From Deltaproteobacteria bacterium (GTDB lineage: Bacteria > Chloroflexota > Dehalococcoidia > Dehalococcoidales > BS750m-G39): a DNA stretch of 64,000 nucleotides. A program made the translations under genes and the position numbers. Under the pieces are notes generated by a model, which worked only from the letters and a program-made list of their open reading frames with translations, had not been told where the DNA came from and searched no databases. This document shows, one piece after another, positions 34,953 through 55,281 of the stretch (positions are counted from its first letter, which is position 1; each line of letters opens with the position of its first letter). The stretch is from the NCBI GenBank assembly GCA_030603275.1, contig JAUVYB010000005.1, forward strand, positions 13,928 through 77,927. Reading direction: 5' to 3'.

Positions 34953-34973
34953 CCGAATAAAAGAGGGGGTGTT

Positions 34974-35345: not shown

Positions 35346-35374
35346 ACTCGGGTGGACAGAGGGAAGGATTTTAG

Positions 35375-36001: not shown

Positions 36002-36004
36002 GAA

Positions 36005-37351: not shown

Positions 37352-37376
37352 CCTTGCTTTTAAGGAGAAGCTTTAA

Positions 37377-38512
37377 GTGAGAGATATCGGGCGGATAAAT
37401 AACCCTAACCAGGATAACAAGATAATCGACGCCTGCTCTATATTCGGGGCGATGGATACCACCGGTAAACGGTTTTCCGGCGAGGGCGTCATCAGGGCTA
37501 TCGCCAACATGCACGACCGTGGCAACGGGCTGGGCGGCGGCTTTGCCGTCTACGGCCTCTACCCCGATTACGCCAACCAGTACGCCTTTCACGTGATGTT
37601 CCTGAGCCAGCAGGGCAGGCAGGAGACGGAGGCGTTTTTAAAGGATAACTTTGACCTTATCGAGCAGCAGGAGGTGCCCACCCGGCTGGCGCCGCCGATT
37701 AAGCACCCGCCGCTGGTACGGCGCTATTTTCTTGACATAAATAAAAATAAGCCAGGCAAGCAGTCCGGGGATGACTATGTATTAGAAAAGGTTATGACCA
37801 TAAATACCAAATTATCCGACAGCTTTGTCTTTTCCAGCGGTAAGAACATGGGGGTATTTAAGGGGGTGGGCTACCCCGAGGAGATAGCCGATTACTTCTG
37901 TTTGGAGCAGTACCAGGGCTACCTCTGGACGGCTCACGGGCGGTTCCCCACCAATTCCCCCGGCTGGTGGGGTGGTGCGCACCCGTTCTGTATCCTGGAC
38001 TGGACGGTTATTCACAACGGTGAGATTTCGTCCTACGGTATTAATCGCAGGTATTTGGAGCAGTTCGGCTACCAGTGTACCATGCAGACCGATACCGAGG
38101 TGGTGGCCTACGCCGTCGACCTGCTGATGCGCCAGCACCACCTGCCGCTGGAGGTAGTGGCCAAAATCCTGGCACCGCCTTTCTGGAATACTATCGGGCG
38201 CCTGCCGAAAGAGGAGCAGAAGCTGATGCTGGCTCTGCGCCAGGTGTACGGCAGCCTGCTCCTGAACGGGCCCTTCGCCGTAATTATCGCCCACCACGGT
38301 GAGATGATTGGGCTGACCGATCGTATACGCTTAAGGCCGCTGACGGTGGGGGAGAAGGGTGATATGCTCTATCTATCTTCTGAGGAATCGGCAATCCGCC
38401 TGATAGCCCCGGAGCTGGATAAGGCCTGGATACCGATGGGTGGCCAGCCGGTAGTCGGCAGGCTGAAGGTGGGGGCTAAAAATAGAGTAACCGCCGGGGG
38501 GGGCGAAATAAG

Positions 38513-38519
<7 letters not shown>
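37377..38519 (+). CDS. Glutamate synthase, class II (Ntn) glutamine amidotransferase domain protein (archaeal-type split GltS)
   Basis: 380 aa. Catalytic Cys in [10 protein letters not shown] follows a short propeptide. HGRFPTNS and HNGEISSYG-type motifs. GTG start. Confidence 0.82.
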
Positions 38520-39289
<770 letters not shown>

Positions 39290-39293
39290 GACG

Positions 39294-40799
39294 ATGAAGA
39301 CCTATATAGCACCCAAGTTTTTAGTAAAGCGAGACCCGGAGCGCTGTATCCAGTGCCAGGTTTGTGTTAACCAGTGCAGCTTTGACGCTAATTACTATGA
39401 TGCCGAGGACAACGAGGTCAGGAGCCGCGAGGAGAACTGCGTCGGCTGCCACCGCTGCGAGGTATTTTGCCCCACCCAGGCGCTGACCATCAGCCGCAAC
39501 CCGCAGGAATATCGCGAGAACTATAACTGGCGCCCAGAGGTTATCGAAGATATCTTAAGGCAGGCCGAGACCGGCGGGGTGCTGCTGACCGGCATGGGTG
39601 ACGACAAGGGACAGAAGATTTACTGGGACCACCTGCTGCTCAATGCCAGCCAGGTGACCAACCCTTCTATAGACCCCCTCCGTGAGCCGATGGAGCTTGT
39701 TACCTGGCTGGGGCGGAAACCCGACCGGCTGGAGCTTGATGATAAATCACGGAATCTGAAAACGGAGCTGGCTCCCCAGGTGAGGCTGGAGGTGCCGGTG
39801 ATGTTTGCCGCCATGTCCTACGGGGCGGTGAGTCTTAATGTGCACCGGTCTCTGGCCCGGGCGGCTACCGAGATGGGTACCCTCTGGAACACCGGTGAGG
39901 GGGGACTGCACCCCAGCCTGTATAAATACGGCGATAACACCATTGTCCAGGTGGCTTCCGGGCGCTTCGGCGTGCAGGCCGACTACCTGAACGCGGGAAG
40001 GGTGGTCGAGATAAAAATCGGGCAGGGAGCCAAGCCGGGAATCGGCGGGCATTTGCCCGGGGAGAAGGTAAGCGCCGAGGTATCGTTAACCAGGATGATT
40101 CCCCAGGGCACCGACGCTATATCGCCGGCGCCGCAGCATGATATTTACTCTATTGAGGACCTGGCGCAGCTTATATACGCTTTGAAAGAGGCGACCAACT
40201 ACACCAAGCTGATATCGGTCAAGATTGCCGCCGTCCATAACGCGGCGGCTATCGCCAGCGGCATGGTGCGGGGCGGCGCCGATATTATCGTCCTTGACGG
40301 GCTCCGGGGCTCTACCGGTGCGGCGCCAAAGGTTATCCGTGACAATGTGGGCATTCCCATCGAGCTGGCGTTGGCCGCGGTTGACAGCCGTTTACGTCAG
40401 GAGGGCATACGCAACCAGGCCTCTATAGTGGTCTCCGGCGGCATCAGAAACAGCGGCGACGTGGCCAAGGCCATCGCCCTGGGGGCTGACGCCGTCTATA
40501 TCGGCACGGCGGCCCTCATTGCCCTGGGCTGCCATGTCTGCCAGCAGTGCCATACCGGCAAGTGCGCCTGGGGGCTCTGCACCACCGACCTCCGCCTGAC
40601 CAAGCGGGTCAATCCCGACATCGGCGCCCGAAGGCTGGCTAATTTGCTGCGGGGCTGGAGCATCGAGCTAAAAGATATACTGGGTGGGCTGGGGGTCAAC
40701 GCCATCGAGAGCCTGCGGGGCAACCGCCTGCACCTGAGAGGTGTTGGCTTAAGCGATACCGAGCTGGAAATTCTGGGAGTAGGGATGGCAGGGAGCTAG
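39294..40799 (+). CDS. Glutamate synthase FMN-binding/catalytic domain protein with N-terminal 2x[4Fe-4S] motif
   Basis: 501 aa. CIQCQVCVNQC and CVGCHRCEVFC. QGAKPG.GG.LPG.KV, GG.GA.P, CHTGKC-type 3Fe-4S region. Confidence 0.9.
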   Translation: MKTYIAPKFLVKRDPERCIQCQVCVNQCSFDANYYDAEDNEVRSREENCVGCHRCEVFCPTQALTISRNPQEYRENYNWRPEVIEDILRQAETGGVLLTGMGDDKGQKIYWDHLLLNASQVTNPSIDPLREPMELVTWLGRKPDRLELDDKSRNLKTELAPQVRLEVPVMFAAMSYGAVSLNVHRSLARAATEMGTLWNTGEGGLHPSLYKYGDNTIVQVASGRFGVQADYLNAGRVVEIKIGQGAKPGIGGHLPGEKVSAEVSLTRMIPQGTDAISPAPQHDIYSIEDLAQLIYALKEATNYTKLISVKIAAVHNAAAIASGMVRGGADIIVLDGLRGSTGAAPKVIRDNVGIPIELALAAVDSRLRQEGIRNQASIVVSGGIRNSGDVAKAIALGADAVYIGTAALIALGCHVCQQCHTGKCAWGLCTTDLRLTKRVNPDIGARRLANLLRGWSIELKDILGGLGVNAIESLRGNRLHLRGVGLSDTELEILGVGMAGS

Positions 40800-40801
40800 C
40801 A

Positions 40802-41560
40802 ATGGCGAGCAGAAAGAACTCAGTGGTTAAGATGGATGCCGGCGGCGTTTACTACCGGGAGCTTAACGCTAACTTAAGAAAAGCCGTTACCAACAGCACC
40901 CGCCGCATCGAGCTCCGCAACGTCTACGGGCAGAGGTACATCGGCACCGATTTGAATAAGCCGGTGGAGATTGAGATATTCGGCACTCCCGGTAACGACC
41001 TGGGGGCCTTTATGAACGGGCCCAGGATTATCGTCTGGGGCAACGCCCAGGACGGCTGCGGCAATACCATGAACGAGGGCGAAATAGTAATCCACGGCCA
41101 CGCCGGAGATATTATCGGGCTATCGGCGCGGGGTGGCAAAATCTTTGTCCGCGATGACGTGGGCTACCGGGCGGGCATCCATATGAAGGAGTACCGGGAT
41201 CGTAAGCCGGCGCTGGTTATCGGGGGCACCGCCCAGGACTTTGTCGGCGAGTATATGGCCGGCGGTGTGCTGATCCTGCTGGGCCTGAATTTAAAAGAGG
41301 GCGAGAGTCATAAAGCCAATTTTATCGGCACAGGCATGCACGGCGGCGTTATCTACCTGAGGGGAAGCGTCGAGGAGTACCAGCTGGGTAAGGAGGTAGG
41401 CGTCGCCCAGCTGGAGGACGCCGACCGTCAGGTTCTTAAGCAGCTGGTCGGCGAGTTCGCCGCCCACTTCGGCTACGATGCTGGCGAGATACTGAAGCAT
41501 AAGTTTATAAAGCTGTTTCCCCGCTGGCTGCGGCCTTACGGCCGGCTCTACGCCTATTGA
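40802..41560 (+). CDS. Glutamate synthase GXGXG-motif domain protein (GltB domain 3-like)
   Basis: 252 aa. Repetitive beta-helix pattern: G.AG...G..M.GG.I.V.G.AGD..G. Confidence 0.85.
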   Translation: MASRKNSVVKMDAGGVYYRELNANLRKAVTNSTRRIELRNVYGQRYIGTDLNKPVEIEIFGTPGNDLGAFMNGPRIIVWGNAQDGCGNTMNEGEIVIHGHAGDIIGLSARGGKIFVRDDVGYRAGIHMKEYRDRKPALVIGGTAQDFVGEYMAGGVLILLGLNLKEGESHKANFIGTGMHGGVIYLRGSVEEYQLGKEVGVAQLEDADRQVLKQLVGEFAAHFGYDAGEILKHKFIKLFPRWLRPYGRLYAY

Positions 41561-41575
41561 TGGGGGTGGACAATA

Positions 41576-42241
41576 TTGCGGCTGCTGATGATAGCTCAAG
41601 AAACCGGGGCGTTGGCCGAGTTGCGTTCCGAAATCGCTCGTAACGGCTTTGCCTGTGACATAGTTCCCCATGGTGAGGGGGTGCTTGAGGAGATAACCGT
41701 CCAACGCCCTGATTTAGTCCTGGTTGAGATGGGCGGTAACCTGCCCGCTGACGAGGTAGGGGAGCTCGTCCGGAGGCTGAAAGGGGAAAGGCGCCTGCCG
41801 GTTATAGCCCTGCTCCCCGGAGATACGCTGGACAGCCTTAACGGCAGTCTTGATGTTGATGATTTTATCACCAGCCCCTGCGATGCGCATGAGCTGGTCT
41901 TGAGAGCCAGGCGAGTTTTAAGCCGGGCCCGGAACATTGACGGCGGCGAGCTAATCAAGTGTGACGGCTTGTTGATAGACCTGGCCAAGTGTGAGGTGAT
42001 CCTGGAGGGCGAAATAATTGAGCTTACCTTTAAAGAGTATGAGATGCTAAAGTTCCTGGCCAGCCACCGGGGCCGTGTCTATAGTCGTGAAGCCCTGCTT
42101 AACAAGGTCTGGGGCTATGACTACTACGGTGGCGACAGGACGGTGGATGTGCATGTGCGGAGACTGAGAAGCAAGATTGAGGACGCAAAGCACACCTTCA
42201 TCGAGACGGTGAGAAATATCGGCTACCGCTTTAAGGTGTAA
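41576..42241 (+). CDS. OmpR/PhoB-family DNA-binding regulator with a degenerate (pseudo-)receiver domain; GlnR-like
   Basis: 221 aa, TTG start. The winged-helix half is conventional (LTFKEYEMLKFL...VWGYDYYGGDRTVDVHVRRLRSKI...VRNIGYRF). In the receiver half, QE replaces the acidic DD pair, Glu51 sits where the phospho-Asp should be (DLVLVEMGG), no Thr/Ser is seen, and DDFITSP replaces DDY.TKP. Confidence 0.8.
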   Translation: MRLLMIAQETGALAELRSEIARNGFACDIVPHGEGVLEEITVQRPDLVLVEMGGNLPADEVGELVRRLKGERRLPVIALLPGDTLDSLNGSLDVDDFITSPCDAHELVLRARRVLSRARNIDGGELIKCDGLLIDLAKCEVILEGEIIELTFKEYEMLKFLASHRGRVYSREALLNKVWGYDYYGGDRTVDVHVRRLRSKIEDAKHTFIETVRNIGYRFKV

Positions 42242-42282: not shown

Positions 42283-43872
42283 ATGTGCGGAATTGCTGGT
42301 TGTTACGGAGCTAAGGATGTTGAGACGGTAAACCGTATGCTCGATGCCATGGAGCACCGGGGGCCCGATGACCGTGGCGTCTATAACTTCAGTGGTGCTG
42401 TTTTAGGCCATACCAGGCTGTCCATCGTTGATGTGGCTGGCGGTCACCAGCCGATACTGACCGCCGACGGCCAAACAGGCATAATCTGCAACGGCGAAAT
42501 CTATAACTTTCGCCAGATTAGAGAGGGCCTTCCCCCCAGCTATGAGTTCACCACCGACTCCGACACCGAGGTCATACTGCACCTTTATCGGGAGAAGGGG
42601 CCGGAGTGCGTAAAAGAGCTGGACGGCATGTTTGCCTTCGCCATCATGGACGGCGGCAAATTATTGCTGGCCCGCGACTCAATCGGCATCAAGCCCCTAT
42701 ATTACGGCTATGCCGACGGCCGGTTTTATTTCTCCTCCGAGTTGGGTGCCATGACCCTGGCCGGAGTAGATGAGGTTCATGAGTTTCCGGCCGGCTCTTA
42801 CTACACGCCAGAGAGCGGCTTCGTTGAGTATTATAAGCTACCGGAGATTCGGGAGCACCTTCTGGCCGATTTTGATGAAGCCAGCCGCCTAATTAGGGAG
42901 ACCTTTATAGCAGCGGTTAAGAAGCGGCTGCTTTCCGATAAGCTGATTCACGTTGGCTCCTTCTGCAGCGGTGGCTTGGACAGCAGCCTGGTGGCGGCTA
43001 TCGCCGCCGAGGAAATCCCCAACCTGCACACCTTTGTCGTGGGCATGATAGACGCCGACGGTAACGAGAGTGACGACCTCAAGGCGTCCCGGATTGCCGC
43101 CGAACATATAGGCTCGACGCACCACGAGCTGATTTTCACCGAGGACGAGTACTACGAGGCACTGCCAATAGTTATCAAGAAGCTGGAGAGCTACGACCCG
43201 TCGCTGGTACGCTGTGCCGTACCCTGCTACTTCACCTGCAAGCTGGCCGCCGACTATGTCACCGTAGTGCTCACCGGTGAAGGCGCCGACGAAATCTTCA
43301 CCGGCTATCACTATATGAAGCACTATCCCACCGATGAGCTTAATGAGGAGGCGATGCGCTGTATCGGCAACCTGCATAACATCAACCTCCAGCGCGCCGA
43401 CCGCATGGGCATGCTCTTTAGCCTGGAGCTGAGAGTGCCTTTCCTGGATACGGCCATGATTGACCTGGCCACGAAGATTCCGCCCGAGCTTAAGATAAGG
43501 CAGTCCGAGGACGGCGAGAGCATGATTGAGAAGTGGATCCTGCGCAAGGCCTTCGAGGGGACGGGCTATCTGCCCGAAGAAATACTCTGGCGTTACAAGG
43601 TCCAGTACACCCAGGGGGCCGGATGCGAGAGCCTGGGGGAGAAGCTGGCCGAGTCGGAAGTGAGCGAGGATGAGTACCAGCGCATCAAAGCGGAGAACCC
43701 CGATGCCGTAATTAACAGCCGCGAGGCGGCCTACTACTTTAAGATATTCCGCGAGTTTCATCCGCAGGATTCGGTGCTCGGTTCTATCGGTATCTGGACC
43801 GGCTTTGACTTCGCTGAGGAAAGGGAGCAGGTGCAGGGAACAGTCGACGGTGACCTCAAACACGTGCGATAG
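42283..43872 (+). CDS. asnB: Asparagine synthase (glutamine-hydrolysing)
   Basis: 529 aa. N-terminal MCGIAG nucleophile, SGGLDSS PP-loop. Confidence 0.93.
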   Translation: MCGIAGCYGAKDVETVNRMLDAMEHRGPDDRGVYNFSGAVLGHTRLSIVDVAGGHQPILTADGQTGIICNGEIYNFRQIREGLPPSYEFTTDSDTEVILHLYREKGPECVKELDGMFAFAIMDGGKLLLARDSIGIKPLYYGYADGRFYFSSELGAMTLAGVDEVHEFPAGSYYTPESGFVEYYKLPEIREHLLADFDEASRLIRETFIAAVKKRLLSDKLIHVGSFCSGGLDSSLVAAIAAEEIPNLHTFVVGMIDADGNESDDLKASRIAAEHIGSTHHELIFTEDEYYEALPIVIKKLESYDPSLVRCAVPCYFTCKLAADYVTVVLTGEGADEIFTGYHYMKHYPTDELNEEAMRCIGNLHNINLQRADRMGMLFSLELRVPFLDTAMIDLATKIPPELKIRQSEDGESMIEKWILRKAFEGTGYLPEEILWRYKVQYTQGAGCESLGEKLAESEVSEDEYQRIKAENPDAVINSREAAYYFKIFREFHPQDSVLGSIGIWTGFDFAEEREQVQGTVDGDLKHVR

Positions 43873-43902: not shown

Positions 43903-43940
43903 GTAACATAAATTTAACCCCCCTGTAATCTGTTGGAAAC
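43903..43940 (+). promoter_or_regulatory. Four pentamer direct repeats at 11-bp periodicity upstream of amt (GlnR-box-like a-n6-b-n6-a-n6-b)
   Basis: GTAAC-ataaat-TTAAC-ccccct-GTAAT-ctgttg-GAAAC. Ends 47 nt upstream of the amt ATG. Confidence 0.45.
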
Positions 43941-43986: not shown

Positions 43987-45393
43987 ATGACTATGGACTT
44001 GAGAAGCAAAGTGATGAGGATAACAATAAGAGGGGTGTTAACTTTTAGCCTTGTCTGTCTGTTGTGGCTGGCATGGGCGGCAATGAAAGGTAGTATAGCT
44101 TTGGCTGCTGATCCCACCGGACTAGGAGGCACGGCAGATGCGGCGATAGACTATGTGTGGATATTAGTCTGTGCCTTCCTGGTGATGTTTATGCAGCCAG
44201 GGTTTGCTATGGTCGGGGCCGGATTCACCCGGGCTAAGAATGCCGGGAACTTTATGACTAAAAACTTGATGGATTTTGTGATTGGCTCACTAACTTTCTT
44301 CTTCGTGGGTTATGCCCTGATGATGGGCGGCGACTGGCACGGTCTCTGGGGCACAGAAGGCTGGTTCATGCTTGGTGAGTATTATGATGTTGATGCTTAT
44401 CTCAATATGTTCTGGATGCTGGTCTTCTGTGCTACTGCTGCTACCATTGTCGCCGGTGCTGTCGCCGAGCGGCTGAAGTTTAAGGCTTATCTTATCTATA
44501 GTGTAGTAGTCAGTGCCATTATTTATCCCATCTATGGTCACTGGGTGTGGGGAGGAGGCTGGCTTTCCAGTCTGCCGCTCGGGCTAGGCGCTCTGGACTT
44601 TGCCGGTTCGGGGGTAGTTCATGCCGTTGGTGGTCTCGTTGGCTTAGCTGGAGCAATCGTTCTCGGTCCGAGGTTTGGCAGATATGATAAGAGCGGAAAG
44701 CCACGGGCAATCCCCGGGCATAGCATAACGCTGGCTACCCTGGGAGTCTTTATCCTGTGGTTTGGCTGGTTTGGCTTTAACCCGGGCAGTACTTGTGATG
44801 CGCACCATCTGAGAATATCGGTTATCGCCGTCAACACCAATCTGGCAGCGGCTGCCGGTGGACTGGCCGCACTCCTTGTAGCCTACTGGAAGACAAGGAA
44901 ATGGGATATAGGTATGCTTATCAATGGCATATTAGCCGGACTTGTCGCCATTACTGCCCCCTGCGCCTGGGTAGAGGGTTGGGCAGCAATTGTGATTGGT
45001 CTTATCGGTGGTGTGCTAATGTATGCCAGTGTCAAGTTCCTTGAAGCTAAGAGGATAGATGACCCGGTGGGGGCAGTGAGTGTGCACGGTGCTTGTGGTC
45101 TGTGGGGTCTGCTTAGCGTCGGTTTCTTTGCCGATGGAACCTATGGTAATTACTCAGTTGACGCACCATATGTCACCGGTCTATTTTACGGGGGGGGAGG
45201 TGAGCAGTTACTCGCCCAGCTTATCAGTGTAGTAGTGGTTGCCGTTTGGGCATTCGGTATGGGCTACCTAACTTTTAAGCTAATGAATAAGGCTTTTGGC
45301 ATTCGTGTATCCCCTGAAGAGGAGCTGCAGGGATTGGATATCCCCGAGCATGGCGCACCAGCTTATCCCGACTTTATTACTAAGCAAAGTTAG
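43987..45393 (+). CDS. amt: Ammonium transporter
   Basis: 468 aa. FMQPGFAMV, D.AG..VVH..GG, W.GW.GFN, multiple TM helices. Confidence 0.95.
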   Translation: MTMDLRSKVMRITIRGVLTFSLVCLLWLAWAAMKGSIALAADPTGLGGTADAAIDYVWILVCAFLVMFMQPGFAMVGAGFTRAKNAGNFMTKNLMDFVIGSLTFFFVGYALMMGGDWHGLWGTEGWFMLGEYYDVDAYLNMFWMLVFCATAATIVAGAVAERLKFKAYLIYSVVVSAIIYPIYGHWVWGGGWLSSLPLGLGALDFAGSGVVHAVGGLVGLAGAIVLGPRFGRYDKSGKPRAIPGHSITLATLGVFILWFGWFGFNPGSTCDAHHLRISVIAVNTNLAAAAGGLAALLVAYWKTRKWDIGMLINGILAGLVAITAPCAWVEGWAAIVIGLIGGVLMYASVKFLEAKRIDDPVGAVSVHGACGLWGLLSVGFFADGTYGNYSVDAPYVTGLFYGGGGEQLLAQLISVVVVAVWAFGMGYLTFKLMNKAFGIRVSPEEELQGLDIPEHGAPAYPDFITKQS

Positions 45394-45429
45394 GTCAGCG
45401 GCAATATGGAATAAGGGGGCGTGAAGAAA

Positions 45430-45768
45430 ATGAAGAAGATAGAGGCGATAATTAGGGTAGAGAAATTTGAGGAGGTGAAGGAAGCTTTGAAGGAATTGGG
45501 CTACCCTGGAATGACCAAGACCCTCGTTGAGGGTCATGGCAAGCAGAAAGGGCTTAAGCAACAGTTTCGCGGTACAACATTTGAAGTAGAAATGGTGCCC
45601 AAGTTAAAACTGGAAATTGTAGTGCTTGACGAAGATGTATCTAGGACACTCGCGGCTATCGTCAGAGGTGCTAGGACTGATGATGTCGGTGACGGCAAGA
45701 TTTTTGTCCTGCCGGTGGAGCATGCGGTGCGCGTCCGCACCGGTGATATAGACGAAAATGCCGTCTAG
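45430..45768 (+). CDS. glnB: P-II family nitrogen regulatory protein
   Basis: Start at MKKIEAIIR gives the canonical 112 aa. GDGKIFV. The T-loop reads GHGKQKGLKQQFRGTTF, so Phe sits where enterobacterial P-II has the uridylylated Tyr51. Confidence 0.93.
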   Translation: MKKIEAIIRVEKFEEVKEALKELGYPGMTKTLVEGHGKQKGLKQQFRGTTFEVEMVPKLKLEIVVLDEDVSRTLAAIVRGARTDDVGDGKIFVLPVEHAVRVRTGDIDENAV

Positions 45769-45880
45769 GCAGGTTGCGAGGTGTAGCAGTATGTAGTACA
45801 TTGATGATAATAAGTACATTGATTGTAAAATAGCTAAATTCTATAAATAAAAATAAGTATTACCAAAGGAGGTGGTAACA

Positions 45881-47224
45881 ATGGCCAACAGGAGCAGGGA
45901 AGAGGCTAATGATTATATTTTAAAGATGGCCAAGGAGCATGATGTTAAGTTTATCCGGCTGTGGTTTACCGATATACAGGGTATACTAAAGAGCTTTGCC
46001 ATCACCGTGGAAGAGCTGGAAGGAGCCATGACCGAAGGGATGGGCTTTGACGGGTCGTCAATTCAGGGATTTGCCCGGATTGATGAGAGTGATATGGTGG
46101 CCCTGCCTGACCCGGATACCTTTCAGCTGCTGCCCTGGAGGCCGCGTGAGCACAATGCCGTGGCCCGCATGTTCTGTGATGTCTTAAGGCCGGGGGGCGA
46201 GCCTTTTGAGGGTGACCCCAGATTTGTCCTTAAGAGGAACCTGAAGCGGGCGGCCGACCTGGGCTATACTTTTTATGTGGGACCGGAACTGGAGTTCTTC
46301 TATTTTCAGGATTCCGAGAGCACCGTGCTGCTGGACCAGGGAGGCTACTTTGATTTGACTCCGCGGGATGCCGCTATCGAGATGAGGAAGGATACCGTTC
46401 TGGACCTGGAGGATATGGGTATCGGCGTTGAGTATTCCCACCACGAAGTCGCCCCCAGCCAGCATGAAATAGACATGAGGTATACCGATGCCCTGACCAT
46501 GGCCGATAACGTGATGACCTATCGCCTTGTTGTCAAAGAGGTAGCCTTCAGGCATGGCGTCTATGCCACCTTTATGCCCAAGCCCGTCTTCGGCATCAAC
46601 GGCAGCGGCATGCACGTTCACCAGTCGCTTTTCAATGGCGACCGGAACGCCTTCTTTGATAAAGCTGATGAATACCATCTGTCCAAGATAGCCAGGAGCT
46701 ATATAGCCGGACTGCTGGCACACGCTCCCGAGATTACGGCGGTGACCAACCAGTGGGTCAACTCTTACAAGCGGCTGGTTCCCGGTTACGAGGCGCCGGT
46801 ATACCTGTCTTGGGCGCGGCGCAACCGCTCTGACCTTATCCGAGTCCCGGAGTACCGGCCGGGCAGGGAAAAGGCGACCAGACTTGAATACCGCTCTCCC
46901 GACCCGGCCTGCAACCCCTATCTGGCCTTCAGTGTCATGCTGGCCGCCGGGCTGGAGGGAATTGAGAAGGGCCTGGAGCCGCCTCCGCCGGTAGAAGAGA
47001 ATGTCTATGAGATGTCCGTAGAGGAAAGGCAGAAGCGGGGCATAGGCACCCTGCCGGCCAGCCTGCTGGAAGCCATACTGTTAGCCGAGAAGAGTGAGCT
47101 AGTGCGCAAGGCTCTTGGCGACCATGTTTTTGAGGCTTTCATCCAGAACAAGAAGATAGAGTGGGGAAATTACCGCGCTCAGGTAACCGAATACGAGCTG
47201 AAGAAGTACCTGCCCATATTATAA
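45881..47224 (+). CDS. glnA: Glutamine synthetase, type I
   Basis: Start at MANRSREE (AAGGAGG lies 8 nt upstream). FTD..G, GFDGSS, GPE.EFF, HHEVA..Q.E, NGSGMH.H.S. Confidence 0.95.
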   Translation: MANRSREEANDYILKMAKEHDVKFIRLWFTDIQGILKSFAITVEELEGAMTEGMGFDGSSIQGFARIDESDMVALPDPDTFQLLPWRPREHNAVARMFCDVLRPGGEPFEGDPRFVLKRNLKRAADLGYTFYVGPELEFFYFQDSESTVLLDQGGYFDLTPRDAAIEMRKDTVLDLEDMGIGVEYSHHEVAPSQHEIDMRYTDALTMADNVMTYRLVVKEVAFRHGVYATFMPKPVFGINGSGMHVHQSLFNGDRNAFFDKADEYHLSKIARSYIAGLLAHAPEITAVTNQWVNSYKRLVPGYEAPVYLSWARRNRSDLIRVPEYRPGREKATRLEYRSPDPACNPYLAFSVMLAAGLEGIEKGLEPPPPVEENVYEMSVEERQKRGIGTLPASLLEAILLAEKSELVRKALGDHVFEAFIQNKKIEWGNYRAQVTEYELKKYLPIL

Positions 47225-47244
47225 AGTCTGAGAGGGGGGCCGCT

Positions 47245-48999
47245 ATGCCGCAGTTGGGTGATGCCCGCAGGCTGCGCATCGGGATGGCTCAGCTCAACGC
47301 TACCGTGGGTGATTTTGCCGGCAACCGGCGGAAAATCCTGAGTGCCATTAAAGAAGCCAGGTCTCTGGGAGTGGATTTGCTCGCTCTTCCCGAACTGGCT
47401 ACATGCGGCTATCCCCCCGAAGACCTGCTTTTTAAGCCCAAGTTTATCGCCGAAAACCTGCGTTCGCTGGAAAAGGTGGTCGAGGCTTCATCGGGGTTAG
47501 CTGTCGTCGTCGGCTTTGTTGATGCCAGAGAGGACATCTATAACGCGGCGGCCGTAATTCACGACGGCAGGCTAGCCGGCGTCTATCACAAGATATTTCT
47601 GCCCAACTACGGCGTCTTTGATGAGAACCGCTACTTCCGCGCCGGCAACCAATGCCCGGTCTATACTATCGGCGGCATCGGGCTGGGCATCAACATCTGT
47701 GAGGACATCTGGTACGAGGATGGGCCGGCTACCGCCCAGGCCAATGCTGGAGCCGAGGTTATCGTTACCATAAGCGCTTCGCCCTATCACTTCGGCAAGG
47801 TGGATTTGCGGGAAAGGATGATAGTATCCCGCGCCGTGGACAACGTGGCTATCTTCACTCACACCAACCTGGTGGGAGGGCAGGATGAGCTGGTCTTCGA
47901 CGGCAACAGTATAGCCGTGGATGAGAAGGGGCAGCTGCTGGCCCGGGGCAGGCAGTTTGAGGAGGACCTGATAGTGGCCGACCTGGATGTTGAATCCGTC
48001 TTCCGGGCGCGTCTTCACGACCCCAGGTGGCGCAAAGAGCCACCGCCTGCCGGGGAGCCAGGGTGTCCCACCCCCAAAATAGTGGTATCCGAGGCGCCGT
48101 TCGAGCTGAAGAAACCGGCCTTACCCCCCAGACAGGTTGAGCTGCGGGGGTCGCCCGGCGAGGTCTATGATGCGCTGGTGCTGGGCACCGGTGACTATGT
48201 GCACAAGAACGGCTTTGAGAAGGTATTAATTGGTCTTTCCGGGGGGTTGGACTCGAGCCTGGTGGCGGCTATTGCCGTTGACGCCTTGGGCAAGTCCAAC
48301 GTGGTGGGGGTGGCTATGCCTTCCCGGTACTCTTCCCCCGGCAGCCTTTCCGACGCCGGGTTGCTGGCCAAAAACCTGGGCATAAAGCTGCTGACCATTC
48401 CAATCGAGAAGATTTTTAAAGCCTATCTGGATACGCTGGCCGGGGCTTTTAAGGAGACGGAACCCAATGTAGCCGAGGAGAATATCCAGGCCCGCATCAG
48501 GGGCAATATACTGATGGCGCTGTCCAATAAGTTCGGCTGGCTGGTGCTGCCCACCGGTAACAAAAGCGAGATGGCCACCGGCTACACCACGCTGTACGGG
48601 GACATGGCCGGCGGCTTTGCCGTGATAAAGGATGTGCCCAAGACAATGGTCTATGAGCTGGCCGGATACCGTAACCGGCTTTCCGGTTATGAGCTGATAC
48701 CGGCTACTATTATGGATAAGCCTCCTTCGGCGGAGCTGAAGCCGGAGCAAAAGGATATTGACACCCTACCTCCATATGAGCTGCTTGACCCGGTGCTGAC
48801 GGCATATGTCGAGGAGGATAAGAGCGTGGAGCAGATAATCGCCCTGGGCAACGATGAAAAAGTGGTAAAGCGAGCGGCCCGGCTGGTGGACGCCAGCGAG
48901 TACAAGCGCCGCCAGGCGCCGCCGGGGGTTAAGATAACCCCCAGAGCATTTGGCAGGGACAGGCGGCTGCCCATTACCAACCGCTTCAAGGGTTCATAA
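47245..48999 (+). CDS. nadE: Glutamine-dependent NAD+ synthetase (nitrilase-type glutaminase + NAD synthetase domains)
   Basis: Start at MPQLGDARRLRIGMAQLN, just after the glnA stop. CN-hydrolase half (ELATCGYPPEDL, ICED). Synthetase half with SGGLDSS. Confidence 0.92.
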   Translation: MPQLGDARRLRIGMAQLNATVGDFAGNRRKILSAIKEARSLGVDLLALPELATCGYPPEDLLFKPKFIAENLRSLEKVVEASSGLAVVVGFVDAREDIYNAAAVIHDGRLAGVYHKIFLPNYGVFDENRYFRAGNQCPVYTIGGIGLGINICEDIWYEDGPATAQANAGAEVIVTISASPYHFGKVDLRERMIVSRAVDNVAIFTHTNLVGGQDELVFDGNSIAVDEKGQLLARGRQFEEDLIVADLDVESVFRARLHDPRWRKEPPPAGEPGCPTPKIVVSEAPFELKKPALPPRQVELRGSPGEVYDALVLGTGDYVHKNGFEKVLIGLSGGLDSSLVAAIAVDALGKSNVVGVAMPSRYSSPGSLSDAGLLAKNLGIKLLTIPIEKIFKAYLDTLAGAFKETEPNVAEENIQARIRGNILMALSNKFGWLVLPTGNKSEMATGYTTLYGDMAGGFAVIKDVPKTMVYELAGYRNRLSGYELIPATIMDKPPSAELKPEQKDIDTLPPYELLDPVLTAYVEEDKSVEQIIALGNDEKVVKRAARLVDASEYKRRQAPPGVKITPRAFGRDRRLPITNRFKGS

Positions 49000-49024: not shown

Positions 49025-49053
49025 TTCGTTTTCTTGGTTGTGCGTGTTATAAT
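49025..49053 (+). promoter_or_regulatory. Sigma-70-like promoter upstream of nrpR
   Basis: TTCGTT, 17 nt (ending in TG-T), TATAAT (49048-49053). Confidence 0.45.
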
Positions 49054-49075: not shown

Positions 49076-50086
49076 ATGGAGAAACTGATGGCGGAACAGG
49101 TTGTCGGCTCCGATGCCGAAGGTAAGCTAATATCCATCCTTAAAATCTTAAGCGAGTCATCAGAAACACTGGGGTCAATCACTATCGCCCGGCGGCTTGC
49201 GGGCGAGGGGGTTTTCTTGAGTGAGAGGGCGGTGAGGTATCACCTGAGGATAGCCGACGAGCGCGGCTATACCCAGCCGGCAGGCCGGGACGGGCGGATG
49301 ATTACTCCCAAAGGGCGGCAGGAGGTTAAGGAGGCCTTAGCCCCGCAGCACCTGGGTTTCGTGCGCGAGAAGCTGGAGATGCTGGCCTACCAGACCACCT
49401 TCGACCCGGTAAAACGCAGCGGCCAGTTGCCCATAAATACGTCACTTGTTGATAAGGATAAGTTCAAAAAGGCGCTTTCGGCGATGAAGGACGCCTTTAA
49501 GGCCGGGATTTGCGTAAGCGAGCTGGTGGCCACGGCGTCAGAGGGAGAGAAGCTGGGGGCGGCGGTTGTGCCCGCTGGTAAAATTGGTTTTGCCACCGTT
49601 TGCAGCGTGGTGACCAACGGTGTGCTGCTAAAGTCTGGTGTCCCTATGGAATTCAGGTTTGGCGGCGTGCTCGAAATCAGAAATTCCAAGCTGAGGCGAT
49701 TTGTGGCCATAATTGACTATGCCGGTACCTCCGTCGACCCCTCCGAGCAGTTTGTCCGGGCTAAGATGACCAGCGTTGGCGAAGCCTCCCGGACGGGGAG
49801 TGGCAAGATACTGGGCGTTTTCAGGACGATACTGGCGCCGGCCAGGGAAATCTTCGAGGAGAAGGTAGCCCTGCTTAAAGAGGTGGGCATCGGCGGTGTC
49901 TATGCCGTGGGCGATACCAGTGAGCCGCTCTGCCAGATTCCGGTAGTCCTGAACCGGATTGGCATTGTTCAGTTGGGTGGTCTTAATCCGGTGGCGGCCG
50001 CCGTTGAGGCTGGAATCGAGATTGAAAACGTGGCCGAGAACGGTTTGATTGATTTCCAGGAGCTGCATAGTTTCTGGGAGCTTTAG
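49076..50086 (+). CDS. nrpR: NrpR-type nitrogen regulator (winged HTH + one NRD/DUF128 domain)
   Basis: 336 aa. LISILKILSES...LGSITIARRL...LSERAVRYHLRIADERGY....GR.GR.ITPKG..E, then LGFV..K.E.L.Y.TTFD, matching my recollection of methanogen NrpR. Confidence 0.72.
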   Translation: MEKLMAEQVVGSDAEGKLISILKILSESSETLGSITIARRLAGEGVFLSERAVRYHLRIADERGYTQPAGRDGRMITPKGRQEVKEALAPQHLGFVREKLEMLAYQTTFDPVKRSGQLPINTSLVDKDKFKKALSAMKDAFKAGICVSELVATASEGEKLGAAVVPAGKIGFATVCSVVTNGVLLKSGVPMEFRFGGVLEIRNSKLRRFVAIIDYAGTSVDPSEQFVRAKMTSVGEASRTGSGKILGVFRTILAPAREIFEEKVALLKEVGIGGVYAVGDTSEPLCQIPVVLNRIGIVQLGGLNPVAAAVEAGIEIENVAENGLIDFQELHSFWEL

Positions 50087-50098
50087 TTACGGCGTTAT

Positions 50099-51190
50099 TT
50101 AGCCGGGTATATTTACTACCAGAGTTGTCCCTTTGCCTGGTGTTGACTTTACTTCAAGAGTGCCACCCAACAGCCGAGCCCGCTCCCGCATTCCAGCCAG
50201 TCCCAGCTTCCCGCTGCGGGGGAGGTCGTCAACGCCTCCCCGCAGTTCAAAGCCCTGGCCGTTGTCGGTTATGGTCACCTTGACTTCGTCTCCGCCGAAC
50301 TCCATTGCCACCTGCGCCTCAGAGGCGTGGGCATGCCGCCTGATATTGTTGAGCGCCTCCTGAACTATGCGGAAGAGCAGTAGCTCAACTTCAGGCGTGA
50401 AACGCCTTTCTCCGCCGAGTATCTTTAGTTCGGCATCTATTCCGTCGGACTCTTGCAAGCCCTTGACCAATGACCTAACTGCCGGGATTAAGCCTAAATC
50501 GTCCAGCAGGGACGGGCGCAGGTCTTGAACGAAGCGCTGCATACTCTGCAGCCCGCGATTGAGCTGGGTCTGCAGGTCTTTGAGGAACAGGACCTCATTG
50601 GAAGCGAAGCCATGCTTCTTCCTGATGAAGTTATCCAGTTGACGCGAAAGAGAACTCAGCACCTGAGCCGTATCATCATGAAGCTCCCGGGCAATACGTT
50701 TCCGCTCCTCCTCCTGAGCCTTGGTTATCTGCTGTAGATGGTGGCGCAGGTTTTCTTCGGCACGCTTTCGCTCGGTGGCGTCTTCCAGGGTCTCGATGGC
50801 GCCGATTATCTTTCCGGCTTTATCTCTGATGGGGCTGGCGGTAAAGTGAAGCCACCTTCCGTTTTTGCCGAGGTCTAGGAAGAAGTCTTCGGCTTCATAG
50901 GCGCCGTCAAGCAACCGGGATTTTTTACACATGCCTTGATAATATGTCTCAATTTCGTTTTCCCGGGCTCCGTCCACCATTAAATCGGCCATAGTCGGCC
51001 TTTTTTCGCTGTAGAATGCCCGCCACTGCTCATCGGTGTCGATTATCTTGTCCCTTTTTAAACCGGTAAGGGCTTCAATGGCTATGTTCCAGTAGATAAC
51101 CCGGTGCTGATTATTGATGACAAACGAGGGAATAGAAGAGCCATCAATAATCTTAGCCAGCATTTCCGAGCCCAGTAGACTTTGAGCCAT
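50099..51190 (-). CDS. Sensor histidine kinase (PAS + HisKA_3 + HATPase_c), cytoplasmic
   Basis: 363 aa. H-box ARELHDDTAQ, N-box EALNNIRRHA, G-boxes DNGQGF and GLAGMRERA. Confidence 0.85.
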   Translation of the reverse strand: MAQSLLGSEMLAKIIDGSSIPSFVINNQHRVIYWNIAIEALTGLKRDKIIDTDEQWRAFYSEKRPTMADLMVDGARENEIETYYQGMCKKSRLLDGAYEAEDFFLDLGKNGRWLHFTASPIRDKAGKIIGAIETLEDATERKRAEENLRHHLQQITKAQEEERKRIARELHDDTAQVLSSLSRQLDNFIRKKHGFASNEVLFLKDLQTQLNRGLQSMQRFVQDLRPSLLDDLGLIPAVRSLVKGLQESDGIDAELKILGGERRFTPEVELLLFRIVQEALNNIRRHAHASEAQVAMEFGGDEVKVTITDNGQGFELRGGVDDLPRSGKLGLAGMRERARLLGGTLEVKSTPGKGTTLVVNIPG

Positions 51191-51227
51191 AGATATTACC
51201 CCGCTATCTCAACTCAATAAAGGGGAT

Positions 51228-51893
51228 TCAAGGCAGCTCTTCCAGAGTGAACCAGCCTTTTCTCAGGCCGTACAGCACTGCCTCGGTGCGGGAGCCGACT
51301 CCCAGTTTATTGAAGATAGTCCTCAGGTGACCCTCAACGGTGCGGTTGCTCAGGTGAAGTTTATCGGCGATGTTCTTATTGGTCATACCCTTGGCGGCCA
51401 GCTTGAGGATGTCTGCCTCACGGTTGCTGAGGTGATCGGAGGGTCTTTCCAGACCCCGCGTCTTGCCCGGCAGTTTAAAGTAATTCATGACCTTGCGGGC
51501 GACTATGGGGTCGAGGACGGGCTCACCCTTATAGACCGCCCGGATGGCGCGGATGAGTTCATCTCCGCTGACATTCTTTAACAGGTAACCGGCGGCGCCA
51601 ACCTTGAGCAGGGCGAAGACGTATTCGTCATCGTCGTAGGCGCTTAAGATGAGCACTGCTGTGCGGGGACTTATTAGCTTGATTTGCCGGGTGGCTTCGA
51701 TACCATTGAGCTTGGGCATGGCGATGTCCATGATGATAATATCGGGTTTCAGGTCGGTGGTCATCTGTACCGCTTCCTCGCCATCGCTGGCTTCGCCTAT
51801 AACCTTAACACCCTTCTCGTCTTCTATAAGACGGCGGATACCCTGCCGTGTTATCACATGGTCTTCAGCCAGAAGTACGTTTATACTGCTCAT
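51228..51893 (-). CDS. NarL/LuxR-family response regulator (canonical receiver)
   Basis: 221 aa. LAEDH, IIIMDIAMP (phospho-Asp), ILSAY, YLLKN. C-terminal HTH LSNREADILKLAAKGMTNKNIADKL. Confidence 0.9.
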   Translation of the reverse strand: MSSINVLLAEDHVITRQGIRRLIEDEKGVKVIGEASDGEEAVQMTTDLKPDIIIMDIAMPKLNGIEATRQIKLISPRTAVLILSAYDDDEYVFALLKVGAAGYLLKNVSGDELIRAIRAVYKGEPVLDPIVARKVMNYFKLPGKTRGLERPSDHLSNREADILKLAAKGMTNKNIADKLHLSNRTVEGHLRTIFNKLGVGSRTEAVLYGLRKGWFTLEELP

Positions 51894-52154: not shown

Positions 52155-52652
52155 ATGGACCTTACCCTTGATTTCCCCAAAGTTAAGGCTATTGTAGAGA
52201 GCTATACGGAGAAGGTTGATTCCCTTATTGAAAGCTACGCCGGTAACAAGGAGCAGCTGATATCTCTACTGCAGGATATCCAGGCCGAATTTAACTACCT
52301 GCCGCAGGATGTGCTGGTTAAAATCAGCCAGAAGCTGGATATTCCCTTGAGCCAGGTTTTTAGCGTGGTTACCTTTTTCCGCGCTTTTACCTTGAAGCCG
52401 AGAGGACGTCATCTGGTGACCGTTTGTCTGGGCACTGCCTGTCATGTCAAGGGGGGGCAGAGGATGGTGGACAAGATGGAAAGGGATTACGGAATAAAGC
52501 CCGGCGAGACCACCGAGGATATGAGATTCAGTCTGGAGACAGTTAACTGCCTGGGTTGCTGTGCTCTGGGGCCGGTAGTGGTTGTCGACGGGAAATACGA
52601 AAGCAAGATGAACCCCGATAAGCTCGACCGCGTCTTGAGGGGATACAAATAA
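52155..52652 (+). CDS. NuoE/HndA-like [2Fe-2S] thioredoxin-fold subunit
   Basis: 165 aa. VCLGTACHVKG...C.GCC. Confidence 0.85.
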   Translation: MDLTLDFPKVKAIVESYTEKVDSLIESYAGNKEQLISLLQDIQAEFNYLPQDVLVKISQKLDIPLSQVFSVVTFFRAFTLKPRGRHLVTVCLGTACHVKGGQRMVDKMERDYGIKPGETTEDMRFSLETVNCLGCCALGPVVVVDGKYESKMNPDKLDRVLRGYK

Positions 52653-52671
52653 ACTCTTGAGGGGGCGTGAC

Positions 52672-54552
52672 ATGGTAGAGCAAGTGCGAAAGCTGTTAGA
52701 AAAAAGAGTAGAGAGTGCCGCCGAGTTGGAGAAGCTGCGGCAGTCAATACTTGACAAAAAAGACTCCAGCCGGACCTGCGTATCCGTGTGCGGGGGCACC
52801 GCCTGCCGTGCCGCCGGAGCTGAGGCGGTGGTAGATGCTTTTGTTGATGAAATCGAGAGACGGGAGCTCCAGATACAGGTGGAGCTAAAGGAAACGGGGT
52901 GTCACGGTTTCTGTGAACGGGGGCCTTTGGTGGTCATTCAACCCAAGAAGATTTTCTACCAGCAGGTAAAACCCGAGGATGTTCCCGAGATTATCGCTGA
53001 AACCGTATTGGGCGGCAAGGTTGTTGAGCGGCTGCTCTATGTAGACCCATCCACCCAAGAAAAAGTTATTTATGAACCTGATGTGCCGTTCTATAAGAAG
53101 CAAACACGAACTATTTTCGGTGCTAACGGAGAAATTGACCCGACAAATATTGAAGATTACATTGCCAGCGGCGGTTACTCCGCCCTGAGCAAGGTTCTTA
53201 CCGGCATGAAGCCCCAGGAGATTATTGACGAGGTTAAGAAGTCGGGCTTAAGGGGGCGGGGTGGTGGTGGCTTCCCCACCGGCCGGAAGTGGCAGTCCTG
53301 CCGTGATGCCGAGGCTGATATTAAATATGTAATCTGCAATGCTGATGAGGGTGACCCTGGTGCCTATCAGGATAGGGCCATCCTCGAAGGTAACCCCCAC
53401 AGCATCCTGGAGGGGATGATTATCGGCGCTTATGCCATCGGCTCCCACCAGGGCTATATCTATGTCCGCAACGAATATCCTTTAGCCGTAAGACATGCCC
53501 GGATAGCTATTGAGCAGGCCATGGATTACGGGCTGCTGGGGGAGAACATACTGGGCTCCGGCTTCGATTTCAAGGTGATGATAAATAAGGGGGGTGGCGC
53601 CTTCGTCTGCGGCGAGTCCAGCGCCCTGATGGCTTCTCTTGAAGGCAAGATAGGCGAGCCGAAGGCTAAATATGTCCACATGTCGGAGAAGGGGCTGTGG
53701 GATAGCCCCAGCCTGCTGAATAATGTCAAGACCTGGGCTAACGTGCCCCTGATAATTAACAAGGGGGCGGATTGGTTTTCTAAGATTGGCACCGCCGGCA
53801 GTAAGGGAACGATGATATTCTCCCTGGTGGGGAATATAAATAACACCGGCCTGGTGGAAGTGCCCATGGGGATAACGCTTAGGGAGATGATTTTCGACAT
53901 CGGGGGAGGCATCCCCAACGGCAAGAAGTTCAAGGCGGTGCAGACGGGTGGTCCTTCCGGCGGGTGTATTCCCGAGCAGTTCCTGGATACGCAGGTGGAT
54001 TTTGACGAGCTTACCAAGCTCGGCTCGATGATGGGCTCCGGCGGCATGATAGTCATAGATGAGGACACCTGCATGGTTGATGTCGCCAAGTACTTCGTTG
54101 AGTTCCTAAAAGGGGAGTCATGCGGCAAGTGCACCCCCTGCCGTGAGGGGATAAACCGGATGAGCGAAATCCTGAACGGCATTACCCATGGGAAGGGTAA
54201 GCAGGAAGACCTTGATACGCTGGAGGACCTGGCGGGGATTTTAAGCGCCGGCGCACTCTGTGCTCTGGGTCAAACGGCGGCCAATCCCGTGCTGAGCACC
54301 CTCCGTTACTTCCGTGATGAGTATCTTGCCCATATTGAGCAGAAGAAGTGCCCGGCCGGTGTCTGCCGGGAGTTAATCCAGTATTCTATTGACCCTGAGA
54401 CGTGCGAAGGTTGTCTCAGGTGTTTGAGGGCCTGTCCTACGGGCGCCATCACTGGCGGGAAGAGAGAGGTCCACACCCTGAATCAGGGGCTGTGTATCAA
54501 GTGCGGCGCCTGCTATGACGTTTGTAAATTCAATGCCGTAATAAGGCAGTGA
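52672..54552 (+). CDS. NuoF/HndC/HydB-like NAD(P)H-binding flavoprotein with N-terminal [2Fe-2S] and C-terminal 2x[4Fe-4S] domains
   Basis: Start at MVEQVRK. GRGGGGFPTG.KW, CNADEGDPGA, ESCGKCTPCREG, C-terminal CEGCLRCLRAC / CIKCGACYDVC. Confidence 0.9.
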   Translation: MVEQVRKLLEKRVESAAELEKLRQSILDKKDSSRTCVSVCGGTACRAAGAEAVVDAFVDEIERRELQIQVELKETGCHGFCERGPLVVIQPKKIFYQQVKPEDVPEIIAETVLGGKVVERLLYVDPSTQEKVIYEPDVPFYKKQTRTIFGANGEIDPTNIEDYIASGGYSALSKVLTGMKPQEIIDEVKKSGLRGRGGGGFPTGRKWQSCRDAEADIKYVICNADEGDPGAYQDRAILEGNPHSILEGMIIGAYAIGSHQGYIYVRNEYPLAVRHARIAIEQAMDYGLLGENILGSGFDFKVMINKGGGAFVCGESSALMASLEGKIGEPKAKYVHMSEKGLWDSPSLLNNVKTWANVPLIINKGADWFSKIGTAGSKGTMIFSLVGNINNTGLVEVPMGITLREMIFDIGGGIPNGKKFKAVQTGGPSGGCIPEQFLDTQVDFDELTKLGSMMGSGGMIVIDEDTCMVDVAKYFVEFLKGESCGKCTPCREGINRMSEILNGITHGKGKQEDLDTLEDLAGILSAGALCALGQTAANPVLSTLRYFRDEYLAHIEQKKCPAGVCRELIQYSIDPETCEGCLRCLRACPTGAITGGKREVHTLNQGLCIKCGACYDVCKFNAVIRQ

Positions 54553-54564
54553 AGGAGGTGTGTT

Positions 54565-55281
54565 ATGGCTAAGGTATGGATTGATGGTGAGACATCTATA
54601 GAGGTGGAGGACGCCGACGGGGTTAACGCGGTTAGCCTTACCGTCGACGACAAGGAGATTATTGTTTCGGCCGGCCAGACGATTCTGGAGGCGGTGCAGC
54701 GTGTGAATGGAATCGGCAATATCCCGGCTCTCTGTAATCACCCGGCCGTAAAACCCTATGGGGCTTGCCGGATATGCACCGTTGAGGTGAGCGAGGACGG
54801 GGGCTCTAAATTTAAATTCGTCGCCGCCTGCCTTTACCCGGTGAAAGAGGGCCTGGTGGTAAAGACCAACACGGAGAAAATCAGGACGCTGCGCAAGGGG
54901 ATAATAGAACTGATGCTGGCCCGGTGCCCTAACGTGAAGAGGATACAGGAGCTGGCTGATGAGTACGGGGTTGAGGAGCCGAGGTTTGTCCTGGGGGACC
55001 AGGACTGTATTCTCTGCGGCCTGTGCGTCAGGGCCTGCCAGGAGATAATAGGCAAGTCGGCGATAAGCCTGGTCAACCGGGGTATCTACCGGGAGGTGGC
55101 CGCCCCCTTCTACGCTTATGAGCTGACTGAGGAGTGCATAGGCTGTGGCGATTGTGCCTTTGTCTGCCCTACCGGCGCTATCGAGATGGGAGACGACGGA
55201 AAACCGATACTGCCCAAGGTAAAGATACCCTATGCCGAAATTGAGGCGCTGATGAAGAAGGAGGCGGTAACCCCTTCTTAA
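54565..55281 (+). CDS. Short NuoG/HydA N-terminal-like Fe-S protein ([2Fe-2S] + [4Fe-4S] clusters, no catalytic domain)
   Basis: 238 aa. C.....C..C plant-type 2Fe-2S, then CILCGLCVRAC and CIGCGDCAFVC. Ends where a hydrogenase or formate dehydrogenase catalytic domain would begin. Confidence 0.8.
   Translation: MAKVWIDGETSIEVEDADGVNAVSLTVDDKEIIVSAGQTILEAVQRVNGIGNIPALCNHPAVKPYGACRICTVEVSEDGGSKFKFVAACLYPVKEGLVVKTNTEKIRTLRKGIIELMLARCPNVKRIQELADEYGVEEPRFVLGDQDCILCGLCVRACQEIIGKSAISLVNRGIYREVAAPFYAYELTEECIGCGDCAFVCPTGAIEMGDDGKPILPKVKIPYAEIEALMKKEAVTPS

Follow-up and report, generated by a model that had tools for sequence, protein, structure and literature searches.

In a 64-kb stretch of contig JAUVYB010000005.1 (64,000 nucleotides; hereafter the window), a nitrogen-assimilation gene cluster ends with nrpR, which encodes a bacterial member of the NrpR family of nitrogen repressors. 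We propose, with a probability of about 60%, that a functional NrpR would repress the operon for glutamate synthase (GOGAT) and the regulator GlnR by binding a dyad at the operon promoter, and that GlnR would then activate amt-glnK. To our knowledge, NrpR has been studied experimentally in methanogens only. A preliminary description of this DNA had called the gene archaeal-type and had named no DNA target for its product. The elements on which the proposal turns are as follows.

34416-34444, plus strand: near-consensus GOGAT-glnR sigma-70 promoter, TTGACA-17-TATGAT with a TG extension, 11/12 matches
34453-34468: predicted NrpR operator CGGCAACCGTTGGCCG, at the centre of an inverted repeat of 28 bp (34447-34474)
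43903-43940, plus strand: four-site GlnR element GTAAC-n6-TTAAC-n6-GTAAT-n6-GAAAC, 20/20 matches
49025-49053, plus strand: nrpR promoter, weak -35 TTCGTT at 49025-49030 and extended -10 TGTTATAAT at 49045-49053
49076-50086, plus strand: nrpR, winged helix and single NRD (Pfam, 3NEK match, AlphaFold model)

A candidate operator at the GOGAT-glnR promoter

The methanogen operator GGAA-N6-TTCC had not been seen in the local promoters, and its exact form is absent from the whole window (0 found, 1.3 expected). Likewise, copies with one mismatch are not enriched (29 found, 30.6 expected). Another dyad, CGGCAACCGTTGGCCG, begins 9 nt past the -10 of the GOGAT-glnR promoter, over the likely transcription start and 14.6 kb upstream of nrpR. 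The earlier search and the one-mismatch scan both missed it because it differs from the methanogen form at three positions (GGCA-ACCGTT-GGCC); it is also sited at the promoter heading the cluster and not beside nrpR, glnA or amt. A target can now be suggested: the missing operator probably exists, as a variant at 34453-34468.

Promoters of the form TTGACA-17-TAnnnT occupy the equivalent place in L007, L038, L051, L074, L084, L095 and L110. A 16-bp dyad lies 6-12 nt past the -10 in all eight lineages whose sequence reaches the GOGAT promoter (the window, L007, L027, L038, L074, L084, L095 and L110, the last being more distant), and further copies stand ahead of hisH in L051 and ahead of carA in L084. 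Its consensus is CGGCAACCGGTTGCCG, or CGGnAAnCGnTTnCCG in symmetric form. When about 1 Mb of nrpR-linked loci was scanned with a position weight matrix built from the dyads, these sites scored 21.7-28.4 bits and the second L084 site 17.6, and nothing else exceeded 16.9. In its 14-bp form the consensus is GGCA-N6-TGCC and differs from GGAA-N6-TTCC by a single base in each half-site. Methanogen operators sit just after the TATA box, and the dyad over the transcription start mirrors that placement.

A palindrome at this position could also act as RNA, as a hairpin or attenuator in the 5' leader of the GOGAT operon. The window repeat does extend to a 10-bp stem in the leader (GGTATACGGC/GCCGTATACC, 34447-34474). 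However, the dyad is found in both orientations relative to transcription, its two central positions are symmetrically conserved though unable to pair in a hairpin, several copies offer a potential stem of only 3-6 bp, and no Rfam family matches the site. We consider an RNA element highly improbable.

Related dyads or half-sites stand at nrpR-linked promoters in other lineages as well. NrpR of Syntrophales and Syntrophobacterales is about 47% identical to the window protein and is encoded in an nrpR-gdh operon; in L104 the operon partner is a glutamate synthase-domain gene, not gdh. The nrpR promoter of these lineages reads TTGACA-17-TAGGTG or TAGAGA and is followed by CGGCAA-AGGA-TGGCCG-A-TTGCCG-ATG, directly ahead of the start codon, while the site in L099 is CGGCAA-ATGA-TTGCCG. 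The pattern taken from Syntrophales only, CGGCAA-N4-TKGCCG, matches the 64-kb window once, at 34453, and none of 100 shuffles contained any match. Half-sites are crowded in L103, with eight CGGCAA/TTGCCG hexamers no more than 276 nt from the start of nrpR (P = 2e-9), and L109, in which gdh and nrpR are divergent, holds four exact hexamers (P = 3e-3) in addition to GGCAAATTGATGCC and ATACGGCAAGAGTGCCGTAT. In a Planctomycetota-like locus, the interval from gdh to a small winged-helix gene contains a perfect CGGAAACACGTTTCCG, the GGAA-N6-TTCC form.

Outside Dehalococcoidales (L097, L099 and L101-L103 of Syntrophales/Syntrophobacterales; L105, L109) the conserved partner of nrpR is gdh, in an operon or divergent. 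In L105 an 84-aa protein that consists of an NrpR-type winged helix alone adjoins gdh.

Several observations weigh against NrpR as the protein that binds the dyad, a reading that draws on comparative sequence throughout. No dyad was found at the glnA, amt or nrpR promoters of this cluster, unlike in the archaeal regulon of nif, glnA and amtB-glnK. Methanoperedens has a glnA-nrpR pair, and this locus shows no clean dyad, only GGAA-N12-TTCC. Spacing varies, being two bases shorter in L107 and L109 and N15 in L103. All loci were gathered through nrpR, and the co-occurrence is one seen among nrpR-bearing loci. Lastly, the Dehalococcoidales dyads have a central CG and fit the LacI/PurR signature AAnCGnTT.

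The last two points would suit a true NrpR whose targets, nif for example, lie outside the window, with the dyad at 34453-34468 belonging to another regulator, such as a LacI/PurR-like protein encoded elsewhere. The Dehalococcoidales sites match xGnAAnCGnTTnCx with an invariant central CG and resemble the LacI-family PurR box aCGCAAACGTTTGCGt; carA and the glutamine amidotransferase genes could be members of a purine or pyrimidine regulon. However, the same half-sites stand at the promoter of nrpR itself in Syntrophales; there they enclose AGGA or ATGA, and the centre in L110 is TAGG, so that the central CG is missing from both. No LacI-family gene occurs in the roughly 1 Mb of loci fetched up to that scan, and in one lineage the operator takes exactly the form known for NrpR of methanogens. 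Apart from NrpR and GlnR the cluster has no conserved regulator, and the direct repeats of GlnR are separately explained. We regard a LacI/PurR-type origin of the dyad as unlikely, and less likely than recognition by NrpR.

The promoters of glnA and amt were also searched for an operator; none was found, and GlnR-type direct repeats are present there instead.

The nrpR gene, its promoter and its family

The ATG-initiated open reading frame (ORF) at 49076-50086 on the plus strand encodes a 336-aa product, exactly as first described, and both motifs quoted for it are present (LSERAVRYHLRIADERGYTQ and LGFVREKLEMLAYQTTFD). A Pfam search assigns residues 19-83 to the HTH_12 winged helix (PF08461, E 4.8e-16) and residues 93-331 to a single NRD (NRD1_2, PF01995, formerly DUF128; E 4e-75). 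The NRD match covers profile positions 1-237 of 238, nearly end to end; a search of NCBIfam gave no model matches. These results bear out the earlier assignment of an N-terminal winged helix-turn-helix followed by one NRD/DUF128 domain. Among solved structures, sequence comparison matches only 3NEK (E 1.2e-24), in which the crystallised chain is the NRD of Methanocaldococcus jannaschii MJ0159 without a DNA-binding domain. An AlphaFold model built from a 31-sequence alignment (pLDDT, the predicted local distance difference test, 83.7) superposes on 3NEK with a target-normalised TM score of 0.87-0.88, a root-mean-square deviation of 2.5 A and 30% identity across the structural alignment. The DNA-binding part of the model comprises helices 34-43 and 50-62 and a beta hairpin at 66-76. 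Its recognition helix, ERAVRYHL, is near-invariant among the bacterial and archaeal NrpR members compared; because the helix is almost identical, a similar half-site is expected in bacteria and archaea. The gene is an intact, genuine bacterial member of the NrpR family, and this assignment is secure. Translation may begin at ATG 49088 instead of 49076, since GGAG stands 7 nt before that codon and orthologues mostly have 331-332 aa.

Alignment of 52 distinct orthologous regions upstream of nrpR shows conservation only of a weak, TTCAGT-like -35 (its TT), of the extended -10 GCG-TGGTATAAT and of AAA a few bases further downstream. No conserved dyad is found in these regions, so the nrpR promoter, which we take to be strong, is probably constitutive and apparently unregulated. 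An operator-less promoter agrees with the expression of nrpR in methanogens, which is independent of nitrogen supply (PMC9765008). Autoregulation of the window nrpR was considered and rejected on this alignment, which shows promoter elements only. Around TATAATA, particular clades have partial palindromes of their own (GTGCTATAATAGCAC in L010, L012 and L013, for example), which we attribute to the self-complementarity of the -10.

We searched 1.84 billion representatives at 50% identity exhaustively for family members and obtained 694 clusters at E<=1e-3. A neighbour-joining tree with midpoint rooting was built from 84 full-length representatives among the best 150 of these clusters; taxon names in it are labels of metagenome bins, and a large upper clade has no taxon names (P0139, P0151 and others). 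The window NrpR groups with the L008 paralogue described below and with clusters named Syntrophobacterales and Planctomycetota. All named members of its clade are bacterial (Dehalococcoidia, Syntrophobacterales, Planctomycetota), and sequences with archaeal names (Hadarchaeota, Halobacteriota, Methanosarcinales/Methanoperedens, Methanosphaera) are placed in other clades. A search seeded with the Syntrophobacterales protein gave thousands of matches; identity to the seed is 62-100% among the best 120, of which the named ones are mostly Syntrophales, Syntrophobacterales or 'Deltaproteobacteria'.

Among NrpR loci in species genomes, 15 of 16 are labelled Dehalococcoidales, Dehalococcoidia or Dehalococcoidaceae, and the host of the contig is a Dehalococcoidales bacterium. 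The sixteenth, the 98%-identical contig L001, is labelled Deltaproteobacteria (bin.571), at odds with all other relatives. In L001 (about 2210-2366) nadE is cut to an in-frame remnant of about 20 codons, its first and last codons joined, and nrpR follows almost directly after glnA.

The presence of nrpR in this lineage was already known. Gao and Gupta in 2007 (PMC1852104) ascribed two homologues of NrpR (MMP0607) in Dehalococcoides, a member of the same bacterial class, to lateral transfer; the presence of these genes is listed only. Many bacterial homologues in public databases owe their annotation to similarity; close relatives of the window protein already bear NrpR-type annotations, and in some sources bacterial relatives are called 'global nitrogen regulator NrpRI'. 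The gene is ordinary and annotated, and its intrinsic novelty is low. Because the named members of its clade are bacterial and the Dehalococcoides homologues have been on record since 2007, 'archaeal-type' overstates the case. It is a historical label; the window NrpR belongs to an established bacterial subfamily with a single-NRD (NrpRI-like) architecture, and its presence is no evidence of the substantial archaeal-like content that the preliminary description had read into this genome.

The NrpR of M. maripaludis (MMP0607) resembles the window protein in its winged helix, a near-identical ERAVRYH recognition helix, an NRD and linkage to nitrogen genes, and its operator resembles the predicted one: a palindrome just past the core promoter with outer GG...CC 14 bp apart. 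Likewise, its own gene is not regulated by nitrogen (PMC9765008). In contrast, archaeal NrpR of this type has two NRDs (representatives of 540-580 aa; the Methanosphaera representative has 557), acts at TATA/BRE (B recognition element) promoters through GGAA-N6-TTCC and targets nif, glnA and amtB, whereas the window NrpR has one NRD, sigma-70 promoters, the consensus GGCA-N6-TGCC and GOGAT-glnR as its predicted target.

Methanosarcina mazei NrpRI is closer in architecture, with a winged helix and a single NRD in about 330 aa, and representatives of Methanosarcinales and Methanoperedens are 38% identical to the window NrpR. NrpRI of M. mazei partners the NRD-only NrpRII, which contacts archaeal general transcription factors. 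Unlike in that system, neither the window nor the loci showed an NRD-only gene, and some Dehalococcoidales (L008 and L110) carry a second full-length paralogue instead. This paralogue (L008 100-1164; L110 10001-11002) is 42-49% identical and lies directly upstream of, or overlaps, a glnR-like gene. In L110 it is inside the GOGAT operon, and in L008 two TTGCC half-sites stand right before its start codon. The two-paralogue state of L008 recalls the two homologues per genome in Dehalococcoides.

GlnR and the nitrogen gene cluster

The preliminary description had placed a GlnR-like regulator near nrpR, and the product of 41576-42241 finds its best matches in the Protein Data Bank among actinobacterial GlnR entries (8HIG, 8HIH and 8HML; the last two identified as GlnR through PMC10235972). 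Its Trans_reg_C domain scores E 2e-28; the receiver reaches only 18 bits, under the Pfam cut-off, and has no equivalents of PhoB D10 (acidic pocket), D53 (phospho-acceptor) and K105. GlnR orthologues retain the phospho-acceptor Asp, which is Gly in the window copy. Within the operon it has no kinase gene as a neighbour. Judged by these features, the protein is an actinobacterial-type GlnR, an orphan atypical OmpR/PhoB regulator, in Chloroflexota.

In PMC10235972 the GlnR element, typified at amtB, consists of four sites (gTnAc / GaAAC; GTAAC consensus) with six-base spacing. Such an element with all 20 positions matched lies at 43903-43940, its last site at the -35 position of the amt promoter and followed by a -10-like GTTAAGCT. 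When both strands of about 1 Mb of loci were scanned for arrays with at least 16 of 20 matches, 20 of the 21 arrays stood directly upstream of amt; of the 21 loci whose intergenic region ahead of amt measures 80 nt or more, 20 have the array. Weaker boxes occur at glnA promoters: the window has GTACA-n6-GTAAA at 45814-45829, and L010, L012 and L013 have TGTAACA-tgat-TGTAACA. Together, the regulator and the conserved element resemble a GlnR regulon of actinobacterial type, here in Chloroflexota. The window protein shares with actinobacterial GlnR its structural matches, its orphan atypical type and the four-site amt element, and differs in its host phylum, in its place at the end of a GOGAT operon and in the Asp to Gly change.

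The genes between the GOGAT-glnR promoter and nrpR are listed below; assignments in the operon at 34485-42241 are from Pfam unless noted.

34485-34952, plus strand: 4Fe-4S protein
34977-35345, plus strand: small ORF
35375-36001, plus strand: hisH
36005-37351, plus strand: Pyr_redox_2 protein
37377-38519, plus strand: GOGAT GATase_2
38513-39289, plus strand: hisF
39294-40799, plus strand: GOGAT FMN (flavin mononucleotide) domain with two Fe-S motifs
40802-41560, plus strand: GOGAT GXGXG
41576-42241, plus strand: GlnR-like OmpR-type regulator (Pfam and PDB matches)
42283-43872, plus strand: asnB, glutamine-hydrolysing asparagine synthase
43987-45393, plus strand: amt
45421-45768, plus strand: P-II/glnK, Phe at the Tyr51 position
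45872-47224, plus strand: glnA
about 47242-48999, plus strand: nadE, glutamine-dependent NAD+ synthase

By gap size the cluster falls into four transcription units, Fe-S gene to GOGAT-response regulator, amt-P-II, glnA-nadE and nrpR; gaps inside the operon at 34485-42241 are mostly 0-25 nt across loci. We compared the cluster proteins with 96 related loci by tblastn. The order of gltS parts, response regulator (glnR), amt, P-II, glnA, nadE, optionally carAB, and nrpR recurs in dozens of Dehalococcoidales contigs, with NrpR identities of 73-98%, and the terminal position that the preliminary description gave to nrpR is conserved. In some loci carA-carB is inserted ahead of nrpR, and nrpR is occasionally detached (L002); in CP070729.1 it is not linked to the cluster.

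Other details of the earlier account held up as well. The GATase_2, FMN and GXGXG parts of glutamate synthase are encoded by separate genes, and the P-II protein reads GTTF by eye where E. coli GlnB has GAEY, which puts Phe at the uridylylation position, Tyr51. The two CetZ-like genes noted elsewhere in the window (4457-5632 and 5694-6869, both minus strand) are adjacent, encode 391 aa each and match Tubulin and CetZ_C (PF21011); the CetZ family was described from archaea.

Among the neighbouring genes, hisH and hisF, which encode the subunits of imidazole glycerol phosphate synthase, alternate with the genes of the split glutamate synthase in one tightly packed operon, an order kept in related contigs. 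The ORF at 34977-35345 (plus strand), between the Fe-S gene and hisH, encodes 122 aa without a Pfam match; counterparts occur in L084 (72% identity) and L095 (46%), and most other loci are without one. Beyond nrpR, 50099-51893 (minus strand) and 52155-55281 (plus strand) hold a PAS-HisKA_3 kinase/LuxR-type regulator pair convergent with nrpR, then ORFs labelled nuoE/nuoF-like by sequence alone, with 40-58% tblastn identity to nrpR-adjacent counterparts in L011 and L015, and a third ORF. The neighbourhood thus partly recurs in L011 and L015. The only Rfam matches in the window are tRNA genes at 21930-22001 and 22098-22169 (plus strand).

A proposed cascade from NrpR to GlnR

We infer that NrpR binds the dyad, that 2-oxoglutarate is its effector and that the regulation is negative. 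NrpR would be made constitutively from its own promoter. In nitrogen-sufficient cells, with 2-oxoglutarate low, it would sit on CGGCAA-N4-TKGCCG, immediately past the -10 of the 34416-34444 promoter, and block the operon at 34485-42241, which encodes the ferredoxin-like protein, HisH/HisF, split glutamate synthase and GlnR. A rise in 2-oxoglutarate would release NrpR from the DNA, and GOGAT and GlnR would be produced. GlnR, in turn, would act through GTAAC-type boxes to switch on amt-glnK and probably also glnA-nadE. In L008 and L110 the paralogue encoded in the operon before glnR would add autoregulation. Repression is the predicted sign because the dyad lies past the -10, a position typical of repressors. 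The 2-oxoglutarate step is taken from knowledge of archaeal NrpR, for which sensing of this metabolite is cited in PMC11957540.

The bacterial subfamily may also have drifted, so that NrpR would respond to another ligand, or would act as an activator or dual regulator where carbon and nitrogen metabolism meet at glutamate dehydrogenase (GDH) and GOGAT. The modest identity to the solved archaeal NRD leaves room for such a change, and gdh, the partner in Syntrophales, is not normally induced under nitrogen limitation. However, the NRD matches its profile from end to end with the fold kept, and all contexts found concern nitrogen assimilation at the 2-oxoglutarate node (GOGAT, GDH, glutamine synthetase, Amt and P-II), in addition to the repressor-like placement of the dyad. 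We hold such drift to be quite unlikely.

On a wider scale, we suggest tentatively, at a little under even odds, that 2-oxoglutarate-sensing NrpR stands above GlnR in a two-tier cascade in Dehalococcoidales, which would combine two regulators known from separate lineages and end in ammonium uptake and glutamine synthetase, with modified forms in other anaerobic bacteria, and that the CGGCAA half-site and GGAA-N6-TTCC reflect a family-wide recognition code used with both transcription machineries.

In the searchable literature we found no report of an operator, a regulon or a GlnR link for a bacterial NrpR. What the present analysis adds is a specific and falsifiable prediction of an operator and a cascade. 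The predicted operator CGGCAA-N4-TKGCCG at 34453-34468 and the wiring of NrpR above GlnR would offer a testable scheme of nitrogen control in the uncultured, environmentally abundant Dehalococcoidales. If true, one repressor family would work with both archaeal and bacterial RNA polymerases.

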